From Escherichia coli (GTDB lineage Bacteria > Pseudomonadota > Gammaproteobacteria > Enterobacterales > Enterobacteriaceae), in assembly GCF_003334765.1 (NCBI RefSeq), contig NZ_QOWT01000073.1: 2,550 nucleotides of DNA. One strand, 5' to 3'. Positions 1 to 2,550 of the stretch are shown one piece after another; within the stretch, counting starts at the first letter, position 1; each line of letters begins with the position of its first letter. The notes beneath the pieces are model-generated. The model was given only the letters and a program-made list of their open reading frames with translations. It was not told the origin of the DNA and did not search any database. The translations under genes and the position numbers were made by a program.

Positions 1-1502
1 TTTAATCCGCGATATAACGAAGCTCCCGGAGCTGCGTAAGGTCTTTTTGGGCTTAATATTTGACAAAGGTCATAAGAATTTTTCTTTCCGAGACAGACTG
101 CACGAAGCGCTCTTTCCGCTGTGTTATTGTCCGCCTCCGCCAGACCGTCATCACAGAAGTTGCACAACGCAACCCAGTGCTTCCTGATATACCGGAACGC
201 ATCTCTCAGACGGCATTTTTTCGATAACGTGTGTTCTTTCTCCTGCATCAGCTTATACAGGGAAGTCAGTAGCGGTTTACTCTGCATTTGCCTGACCGCC
301 AGGCGTTCAGACACCGGCAACCCGCGTATTTCGTGCTCAATGGCGTACAGTTCGCCGATTAGTTTCAGTGCTTCTTCCGCCGTCGCGCTTTTGGTACTGA
401 TATATACATCGTGGATTTTGCGCCGCGCATGAGCCCAGCATCCTGCTTCCGTCAACGCGCCGCCTTCACGTTCGGCACTGAACAGCCGATCGTAACCTGC
501 GAACGCATCTGCCTGCAGGATACCCCGGAAGGGACGAAGGTGTTGCTCCGGATGTTTACCCTGATGGTCCGGTGAGTAGGCGAACCAGACCGCCGGAGGT
601 TCTGGCGAACCGGCATTTCGGTCATCCCGGACATACGTCCAGATATATCCTGTTTTCGCCTTCTTCCTGCCCGGTGCCAGTACTTTTACTGGTGTGTCAT
701 CAGTGTGAACCTTGCGGGTGTTCATCACATAACTGTACAGGGCATCATTCAGCGGCGTCATTAACTGGCAGCACGCATCAACCCAGTTGGAGAGTAAGGC
801 ACGGCTCAGTTCGACACCCTGGCGGGCAAAGATTTCACTCTGACGATACAGTGGCAGGTGTTCGCAGTATTTTCCCGTTAACACGCGGGCAAGTAACCCC
901 GGGCCCGCGATACCACGCTCTATCGGACGGGATGGTGCCGGTGCTTCAACGATGCAGTCACATTTTGTACAGGCTTTTTTTACCCGTTCTGTGCGGATCA
1001 CTTTCAGGGCGCTGCTCACCAGTTCCAGTTGTTCTGCACTGACTTCCCCCAGATAATCCAGCTCACCGCCACACTCCGGGCAACAGCTTTCTTCAGGCTC
1101 CAGGCGGTTTATTTCGCGGGGCAGATGCTCCGGTAACGGACGACGATGGCGTGACTGTCGCAACTGGCGGGGAACCTGCGGGTCATCCTCTCGCCCACTG
1201 TAACGATCGCTGTCCTGTTCGCGTTGCTTCAGCAGGGCCTCAGCCTGTTCAACTTCACGACGCAGTTTTTCAGAACGGGTACCGAACAGCATCCGGCGCA
1301 GTTTTTCTATCTGAGCCCGCAGATGTTCTATTTCCCGTTCATCTTCTTCGATCTTTTCTTCGGCACGTGCCAGCACAGAACGCAGGAAGGCCTCCGTCTC
1401 TTCAACCAGACTCAGTTGTTGGTCTTTCTGACGGAGGGCTTCAGCCTGCTCAGAGAGCAACCTTTCCAGCTCTGCGATGCGAATGAGGTATTTCTGACTC
1501 AT
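1..1502 (-). CDS. tnpC: IS66-family DDE transposase TnpC (Orf3), 3'-partial: 500 codons in window, no stop before the window edge
   Basis: ATG is the reverse complement of 1500..1502; I checked every codon in this frame down to position 3 and found no stop. Translation starts MSQKYLIRIAELERLLSEQAEALRQKDQQL (coiled-coil-like), then CPECGGEL...CTKCDC (zinc-finger-like), HTDDTPVKVL and LQADAFAGYDRLF (DDE core), GCWAHARRKIHD, and DNNTAERALRAVCLGKKN near the end. These are hallmark IS66 transposase motifs. Starts 30 bp after the tnpB stop. Confidence 0.9.
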   Translation of the reverse strand, partial: MSQKYLIRIAELERLLSEQAEALRQKDQQLSLVEETEAFLRSVLARAEEKIEEDEREIEHLRAQIEKLRRMLFGTRSEKLRREVEQAEALLKQREQDSDRYSGREDDPQVPRQLRQSRHRRPLPEHLPREINRLEPEESCCPECGGELDYLGEVSAEQLELVSSALKVIRTERVKKACTKCDCIVEAPAPSRPIERGIAGPGLLARVLTGKYCEHLPLYRQSEIFARQGVELSRALLSNWVDACCQLMTPLNDALYSYVMNTRKVHTDDTPVKVLAPGRKKAKTGYIWTYVRDDRNAGSPEPPAVWFAYSPDHQGKHPEQHLRPFRGILQADAFAGYDRLFSAEREGGALTEAGCWAHARRKIHDVYISTKSATAEEALKLIGELYAIEHEIRGLPVSERLAVRQMQSKPLLTSLYKLMQEKEHTLSKKCRLRDAFRYIRKHWVALCNFCDDGLAEADNNTAERALRAVCLGKKNSYDLCQILSPKRPYAAPGASLYRGL

Positions 1503-1532
1503 GACCGTTTTTATAATGCGGTCAGGAGTTTT

Positions 1533-1883
1533 TTACAACATTGTCAGTGAGTTAAGGCGGGATGTTTTTGGCTGACGCCAGTCCAGCTTATCGAGGAGCA
1601 TTACCAGTTGCGAACGGGTAATGGATACCTTGCCGTCACGTACCGCAGGCCAGATAAACTGGCCTTCCTTCAGGCGTTTGGTGAACAGGCACAGACCATC
1701 AGCATCAGCCCAAAGAATTTTAACGGTGTCACCCCGTCGGCCACGGAAGATAAACAGGTGGCCGGAGAAGGGATTATCATTCAGCACATGTTGTACCTGT
1801 TCTCCCAGTCCGTTGAAGGATTTACGCATATCGGTAACGCCGGCAACGAGCCAGATACGGGTACCTGATGGGAGTGAAATCAT
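1533..1883 (-). CDS. tnpB: IS66-family accessory protein TnpB (Orf2), 116 aa
   Basis: ORF-track protein MISLPSGTRIWLVAGVTDMRKSFNGLGEQVQHVLNDNPFSGHLFIFRGRRGDTVKILWADADGLCLFTKRLKEGQFIWPAVRDGKVSITRSQL..., which I recognise as the IS66 Orf2 type common in enterobacterial elements. Size and position between tnpA and the transposase fit. Confidence 0.9.
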   Translation of the reverse strand: MISLPSGTRIWLVAGVTDMRKSFNGLGEQVQHVLNDNPFSGHLFIFRGRRGDTVKILWADADGLCLFTKRLKEGQFIWPAVRDGKVSITRSQLVMLLDKLDWRQPKTSRLNSLTML

Positions 1884-2305
1884 CTTCCCCTCCCGCTCAG
1901 TTCGCGGATCAACACCGTGAGCAGCTCTGGCGATGGATTTTCCAGCGTCATGTTACCGTGACGGAACTCCACCTTGCAGGAACTGGCACTGACTCTGGTC
2001 TGAGTGGAAGTGGATAAAGACGGCGCAATGGCCGCCACAGGTTTTTTCTGCTCATCCGGCGTTATTTCTACAGGTAATAATTCAACGCCAGTGTCAGAAG
2101 AGGTCGTTACCGGAAGACGCCGCGAAACACGCCCTTCGTTCTGCCAGAGCCTGAGCCATTTGAAAATAACATTATCATTGACGCCATTTTCACGTGCAAT
2201 CTGTGCAACACAAGCTCCAGGTTGTGATGCCAGTTCCACCATACGAAGTTTGAATTCATTCGAATAGTTTTTACGAGGTTCTTTTCGCCAGTCCTGTAAT
2301 TCCAT
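1880..2305 (-). CDS. tnpA: IS66-family accessory protein TnpA (Orf1), 141 aa, HTH-like N-terminus
   Basis: ORF-track protein MELQDWRKEPRKNYSNEFKLRMVELASQPGACVAQIARENGVNDNVIFKWLRLWQ...; N-terminal region resembles the helix-turn-helix of IS3 OrfA / IS66 Orf1 proteins. First gene after the repeat; its TGA stop overlaps the tnpB ATG (ATGA at 1880..1883). Confidence 0.8.
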   Translation of the reverse strand: MELQDWRKEPRKNYSNEFKLRMVELASQPGACVAQIARENGVNDNVIFKWLRLWQNEGRVSRRLPVTTSSDTGVELLPVEITPDEQKKPVAAIAPSLSTSTQTRVSASSCKVEFRHGNMTLENPSPELLTVLIRELSGRGR

Positions 2306-2320
2306 ACTTAGATGTCCGTC

Positions 2321-2348
2321 TATATCAGATGGGCGTCTAAGTTACCAA
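2321..2348 (-). promoter_or_regulatory. Possible sigma70-like promoter for tnpA in the leader between the repeat and the tnpA start
   Basis: Minus strand reads TTGGTA (plus 2343..2348) then 16 nt then GATATA (plus 2321..2326). Weak match to consensus, and the resulting leader before the ATG at 2305 would be very short. Speculative. Confidence 0.15.
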
Positions 2349-2365
2349 TTTTCGTCTGATGGCTA

Positions 2366-2390
2366 TATACGGCGGTCAGTTTACGCTTAC
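2366..2390 (-). repeat. Terminal inverted repeat (left end) of the IS66-family element; outer boundary at 2390/2391, inner extent uncertain
   Basis: Plus strand 2371..2390 is ggcggtcagtttacgcttac; its reverse complement begins GTAAGCGTAAACTGAC. The flanking transposase reading frame runs right up to 2391 and then breaks. Length cannot be fixed without the partner repeat. Confidence 0.6.
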
Positions 2391-2550
2391 AAAACGATAG
2401 TGGCTCAGGCTCTCATTTTTCAGCGTTCCCCAGAAGCTTTCCATCGGAGCGTTGTCGTAACAGTTACCTTTACCCATAGAGGCGGATATAAGGGGAATGC
2501 CGGCAGAGCAGCGGCTTGCTGAACGTCAGCGAAAAACGAAACCGCTGTTG
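2391..2550 (-). pseudogene. IS3-family transposase (OrfB, DDE catalytic core) fragment, interrupted by the IS66 insertion; extends beyond the window
   Basis: Minus-strand translation of about 2391..2480 gives GIPLISASMGKGNCYDNAPMESFWGTLKNESLSHYRF. The CYDNA...ESF(W/F)..LK.E pattern, with K seven residues after the catalytic E, is the IS3-family signature. The frame ends exactly at the IS66 repeat junction. An in-frame TGA lies upstream at 2526..2528. Confidence 0.75.

Follow-up and report, generated by a model that had tools for sequence, protein, structure and literature searches.

The window, by which is meant the whole 2,550-bp stretch of Escherichia coli DNA analysed here, is composed of segments of ISEc45, ISEc43, IS600 and ISEc8. 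Element names combine the family labels assigned by PGAP with identity to labelled RefSeq copies. The last 76 bp of ISEc45, a member of the IS110 family, occupy positions 1-76 on the plus strand and interrupt the tnpC gene of ISEc43. ISEc43, an IS66-family element, extends on the minus strand from the ISEc45 break at position 77 to its left terminal repeat ending at 2390, and is 99.7% identical to other ISEc43 copies, including that of E. coli S88. It is followed on the minus strand by an orfB fragment of IS600 (IS3 family) at 2391-2473, corresponding to nucleotides 1004-1086 of the 1264-bp element. The remaining positions, 2474-2550, carry the start of a 493-bp 3' remnant of tnpC from ISEc8 (IS66 family) on the plus strand. 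Comparisons were made with O55:H7 USDA5905 (L001) and NCTC9082 (L007, closest to the window), which are 99.6-99.8% identical over the whole window, and with strain 102651 (L006), which is 99.5% identical over window positions 75-2550.

The genes of ISEc43 were identified by NCBIfam profile search. TnpC, encoded at 78-1502 on the minus strand, scored 393.8 bits against NF033517 (cut-off 180), and its frame is open from 1502 to 78 in the ORF listing and translation; the C-terminal end of the protein is cut off by ISEc45. TnpB (1533-1883, minus strand) scored 117.9 bits against NF033819 (cut-off 50) and TnpA (1880-2305, minus strand) scored 83 bits against NF047595 (cut-off 74). The tnpA and tnpB genes overlap by 4 bp and both lie upstream of tnpC.

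Independent PGAP-labelled copies of ISEc43 match the window from 77 to 2390/2391 with 99.6-99.7% identity, and because these copies lose homology exactly at that point, the left terminal repeat of ISEc43 ends with position 2390. The repeat, as read from the sequence, lies on the minus strand at 2361-2390 (the 30-bp extent is approximate) and runs inward as GTAAGCGTAAACTGACCGCCGTATATAGCC. It starts with GTAAGCG on the minus strand, and its reverse complement, GTAAGCGTAAACTGACCGCC..., ends at 2390. Elements of the IS66 family are described in ISfinder as having terminal inverted repeats beginning GTAAGCG and generating an 8-bp target duplication. The intact ISEc43 of E. coli S88 (NC_011742 2057716-2060247; L003 1283-3814) is 2532 bp long, has GTAAGCGT at the start of both ends and lies between the two copies of an 8-bp duplication, GTCTATAA; terminal repeats and an 8-bp duplication of the IS66 kind were thus found for ISEc43 in S88 as well as at the present locus. 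Within the left terminal repeat (GGCTATATACGG), position 2366 is T in the window and C in S88, L001, L006 and L007. This is one of four differences in the ISEc43 part between the window and every copy compared.

Positions 2391-2473 are identical at 83 of 83 nucleotides to an intact, PGAP-annotated IS600 (L002; E about 1e-38), an agreement that, judged by sequence comparison, is far beyond chance. The intact element measures 1264 bp (L002 4455-5718); its terminal repeats start with TGAGGT, and PGAP annotates a programmed frameshift in it. The adjacency of IS66 and IS600 elements in that strain (Z1323MEC0002, hit H10) is coincidental, and the locus served here as a source of intact IS600 sequence. 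The IS600 piece in the window encodes (G)KGNCYDNAPMESFWGTLKNESLSHYRF, in which the motif MESFWGTLK can be read directly, and the peptide includes the catalytic E of the IS3-family DD(35)E triad, followed by K at +7. The minus-strand reading of 2477 to 2376 is MGKGNCYDNAPMESFWGTLKNESLSHYRF-VSVN*. Its segment GKGNCYDNAPMESFWGTLKNESLSHYRF aligns to profile positions 308-334 of 369 in the NCBIfam IS3-family model NF033516 with E = 5e-9, a match that falls under the whole-protein cut-off, only 28 aa being present, and the rejoined IS600 C-terminus matched the same model with E = 5e-24. The 33-aa ORF at 2376-2477 is a junction artefact, since both of its ends are supplied by junctions: the ATG arises from the IS600/ISEc8 junction, and the last four codons and stop (VSVN*) are read-through into the ISEc43 repeat.

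On the other side of the IS600 piece, window 2474-2550 translates to ...MPAEQRLAERQRKTKPLL on the plus strand. The corresponding 493 bp in L001 (8175-8667) are 99.4% identical to a PGAP-labelled ISEc8 (L005 3005-3497); the extended fragment matches profile positions 259-383 of 387 in NF033517 (E = 2e-43), and PGAP annotates the remnant in L001 as an IS66 family transposase pseudogene. The join between IS600 and ISEc8 tnpC at 2473/2474 is blunt and internal to both elements, and base-by-base comparison with L001, L002 and L005 revealed no element terminus, duplication or microhomology there. The window shares this junction string with L001, L006 and L007. The fusion appears to be a scar of deletion or illegitimate recombination and not a transposition junction. 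O26-type hits of 82% coverage (H76-H78) were considered as an ancestor of this join and rejected, as they represent an unrelated neighbourhood in which a full ISEc8 and a full IS600 stand in another order.

The first 8 bp of the IS600 piece, 2391-2398, read AAAACGAT and correspond to IS600 nucleotides 1079-1086. The far junction and any second copy of this octamer lie outside the 2,550-bp window and were therefore read in the relatives, which are 99.5-99.8% identical to it. In L001, L006 and L007, the rest of the IS600 orfB 3' end (nucleotides 1079-1264) is located beyond ISEc43, about 4.4 kb away. In L001 this piece occupies 3505-3690 and finishes in AAAACGAT, with GTAAGCGTCAACGGAG, the 16 bp that open the right repeat of ISEc43, immediately after it. 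A second copy of AAAACGAT accordingly stands right before the right repeat (L001 3683-3690), as it also does in L006 and L007. The two IS600 halves are colinear with the intact element, L002 4455-4640 corresponding to L001 3505-3690 and L002 4633-4715 to L001 8092-8174, and they overlap on it by exactly 8 bp (nucleotides 1079-1086). AAAACGAT adjoins GTAAGCG on the left and ...CGCTTAC on the right, with the same junction strings in L001, L006 and L007. In intact IS600 copies (L002, L008), TTATTAAAACGATAGTGGCTC is unbroken and AAAACGAT occurs singly.

Because the IS600 halves are colinear and overlap by AAAACGAT, the arrangement is that of an ordinary transposition event with duplication of an 8-bp target, in which IS600 was present first. 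Transposition by the DDE transposases of IS66-family elements duplicates 8 bp of the target. ISEc43 transposed into IS600 orfB at nucleotides 1079-1086, duplicating AAAACGAT and splitting the IS600 3' end into 83 bp at 2391-2473 and 186 bp beyond ISEc43. The first-pass annotation of this DNA had proposed an IS66-family element nested within an IS3-family transposase gene, the IS3-family copy being the older, and had predicted that the remainder of the IS3 gene would be found with an 8-bp duplication of 2391-2398. The terminus lies exactly at 2390 with IS600 starting at 2391, the colinear halves with AAAACGAT at both ISEc43 ends support the proposed order, and the predicted remainder and duplication were recovered in L001, L006 and L007. 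Its description of the target needs amendment: the sequence is indeed IS600 orfB, but what is present is a remnant and not a gene. A complete IS3/IS600 element, having orfA, orfB, a -1 frameshift and TG...CA repeats, was not found at the locus, where one IS600 terminus (TGAGGTGTACTGG...) is kept at L001 3505. IS600 at this locus is a non-functional 3' remnant of 261 bp.

The sequence expected without ISEc43 is TTATTAAAACGATAGTGGCTC followed by CCTTTACCCATAGAGG. A synthetic query for this empty-site allele, joining the espI flank, the rejoined IS600 remnant and ISEc8, retrieved no match among 5426 complete genomes, and the pre-insertion state at the locus was consequently deduced from intact IS600 copies elsewhere. 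The earlier annotation had counted an intact IS3-like frame, unbroken in a reference, as evidence against nesting. Such intact copies do exist, and they represent the empty site and thereby favor insertion. Of the right repeat of ISEc43, no more than 16 bp adjoin the left copy of the duplication before an ISEc8-like insert begins, so that the ISEc43 body beside the window is possibly a recombinant of two copies.

With a probability of approximately 0.93, window positions 2376-2550 span two junctions within a pile of defunct insertion sequences, and no working gene is located anywhere in this interval. Several other explanations were weighed against this reading. That 2391-2550 consists of a single IS3-family transposase gene whose sole break is at 2390/2391, as had been claimed from the open frame, is scarcely credible. 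The DDE-core peptide does exist, in a frame that reaches 2391, and the claim stands for the 83 bp of IS600 at 2391-2473, but IS600 identity ends at 2473, the same frame meets a stop 18 codons further upstream with no IS3 similarity on the way, and 2474-2550 is 99.4% identical to ISEc8 tnpC on the opposite strand; the supposed 160-bp IS3 piece is accordingly abandoned. It is very unlikely that the ISEc43/IS600 junction was produced by deletion or recombination instead of transposition, even though the adjacent 2473/2474 junction is a scar of precisely that kind and the ISEc43 body is apparently recombinant. The break coincides exactly with the final base of the terminal repeat, and the colinear IS600 pieces overlap by 8 bp, the length of an IS66-family duplication, for which chance agreement of an 8-mer would be about 1 in 65,000 with colinearity not yet counted.

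The reverse order of events, with IS600 inserting beside or into a pre-existing IS66 element, would draw on the abundance and activity of IS600 in many E. coli and Shigella genomes (hundreds of hits). The junction contains no IS600 terminus, however, and the base at which the elements meet is internal for IS600 (nucleotide 1086) and terminal for ISEc43, leaving this order a practically negligible chance. An assembly chimera was also considered, given that IS-rich regions are prone to mis-assembly and repeats may have been mis-joined in the source assembly. Identical junction strings are nevertheless found in independently sequenced complete genomes of different serotypes and countries, among them O55:H7, O111:H21, NCTC9082 and 102651 (Gambia), and the probability of such an artefact is close to nil.

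Further layers were recognized around this nest. Intact ISEc43 copies match the window from position 77 only, and in L001 an insert of 1446 bp (4332-5777) divides ISEc43 at 4331/5778, its CDS being annotated by PGAP as an ISEc45 family transposase. The 3' part of ISEc45 includes 252 bp of non-coding sequence. The ISEc45 label derives from PGAP, the insert junctions carry an ambiguity of at most 1 bp, and no inverted repeat is evident by eye. IS110-family elements encode a DEDD transposase, have no terminal inverted repeats and produce little or no target duplication. ISEc45 would have inserted into ISEc43 tnpC at a later stage; it is absent from ISEc43 in strain 102651. The ISEc45/ISEc43 junction (window 1-160, at least 80% coverage) was detected in 601 of the 5426 complete genomes of E. 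coli, which would reflect either repeated site-specific insertion or the spread of a composite element.

An internally deleted ISEc8-like element is situated 16 bp inside the ISEc43 right repeat of strain 102651 (L006 4644-5790), with a clean 8-bp duplication in which ...ACGCTTAC is followed by CAACGGAG and then CACCG...; this clean form was found in strain 102651 only. The 3' end of the ISEc8-like element is 87-88% identical to ISEc8, and L006 5066-5473 shows it to be a mosaic, tnpB/tnpA being 97.5% identical to ISEc8 and the 3' part of tnpC only 87%. In L001 (3691-4128) and L007, the ISEc8-like element is down to 406 bp and is followed by a complete ISEc43 right repeat, 16 bp of which are thereby present twice. 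A single insertion with an 8-bp duplication was tried as an explanation for the L001 insert and fails because of these duplicated 16 bp. In L001 and L007, the 219 bp of ISEc43 next to the right repeat (L001 4113-4331) contain 7 mismatches relative to S88 and L006, about 5 more fall in the 2314 bp outside this stretch, and this clustering suggests a hybrid ISEc43 derived from recombination between two copies. The ISEc8-like element would first have entered the right terminal repeat of ISEc43, 16 bp inside it, duplicating CAACGGAG. In the simplest scenario, a second ISEc43 copy may then have entered the ISEc8-like element and recombined with the first copy, with loss of the intervening DNA. In the lineage of the window, the ISEc8-like insert was probably cut to 406 bp in this manner, by recombination with the second ISEc43.

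Five complete E. coli genomes have a chromosomal segment that matches all 2550 bp of the window at 99.6-99.8% identity. A query comprising 2300-2550 (251 bp, spanning both junctions) was fully covered in nine of the 5426 complete E. coli genomes searched, in every case on the chromosome, and the 2390/2391 and 2473/2474 junctions are common to all nine. In the relatives, the locus lies between espI and iha, and the only IS600 end there faces espI. The LPA island carries both iha and espI (PMC6455142). The locus belongs to an LPA-type E. coli chromosomal virulence island. About 100 bp downstream of espI (L001 3400-3504), next to the IS600 end, also match sequence downstream of espP; the espP matches are on pO157-type plasmids (H80-H85), where IS600 occurs within about 1 kb. 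This match may represent a shared flank of two related autotransporter genes. Literature searches returned catalogue-style mentions only for ISEc43 and, in the literature searched, no description of the espI-iha stack itself.

All of the elements involved are catalogued and the mechanism is standard; the region is an ordinary cluster of IS remnants with no sign of new function. Directed targeting of one IS by another, in place of a neutral pile-up, is a rather unlikely explanation for the stack. It is suggested by three IS66-family insertions within other elements over a span of about 5 kb, together with the recurrent position of ISEc45 in ISEc43-type tnpC. IS110-family elements use guide-RNA-directed site choice. 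No RNA family was recovered when the nest was scanned in full against Rfam (L001 3400-8800, E up to 0.1). Were targeting to apply, ISEc45 would act specifically on the transposase genes of IS66-family elements, as their parasite or inactivator. The region is of value for its record of the order in which events occurred, and its importance beyond record-keeping is small. That record gives a chronology for the espI-iha island in which IS600 was followed by ISEc43, then by insertion of the ISEc8-like element, and then by recombination and ISEc45. Typing could make use of the lineage-specific junction strings, which nine of the 5426 complete genomes share. In annotation, the 33-aa ORF (2376-2477) is to be treated as an artefact and 2474-2550 as ISEc8 and not as an IS3-family gene.

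Compared with the ISEc43 of S88, window 77-2390 is 99.7% alike at the nucleotide level and shares the tnpA-tnpB-tnpC order, the GTAAGCG termini and the 8-bp duplication. Unlike the S88 element, the copy in the window has its tnpC split by ISEc45, the right end in the relatives of the window holds the ISEc8-like insert, and the first 219 bp of ISEc43 at the locus diverge by about 3% from other ISEc43 copies. With respect to IS600, window 2391-2473 is identical to nucleotides 1004-1086, including the NCYDNAxxESFW...K motif, whereas the locus keeps only 261 of the 1264 bp of the intact orfAB element and is without orfA, the D residues of the triad and the left end. The ISEc8 part, made up of window 2474-2550 and the next 416 bp in the relatives, is 99.4% identical to the 3' end of ISEc8, terminal repeat included. 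In contrast to intact ISEc8, only the last 493 bp are present, and their 5' boundary is an internal break joined to IS600. No mechanistic difference from the known remnant clusters of pathogenicity islands was found. As in the IS-remnant clusters of LPA, the elements are stacked and mutually interrupting between virulence genes, and whether a target duplication is intact or split likewise reveals the order of events.
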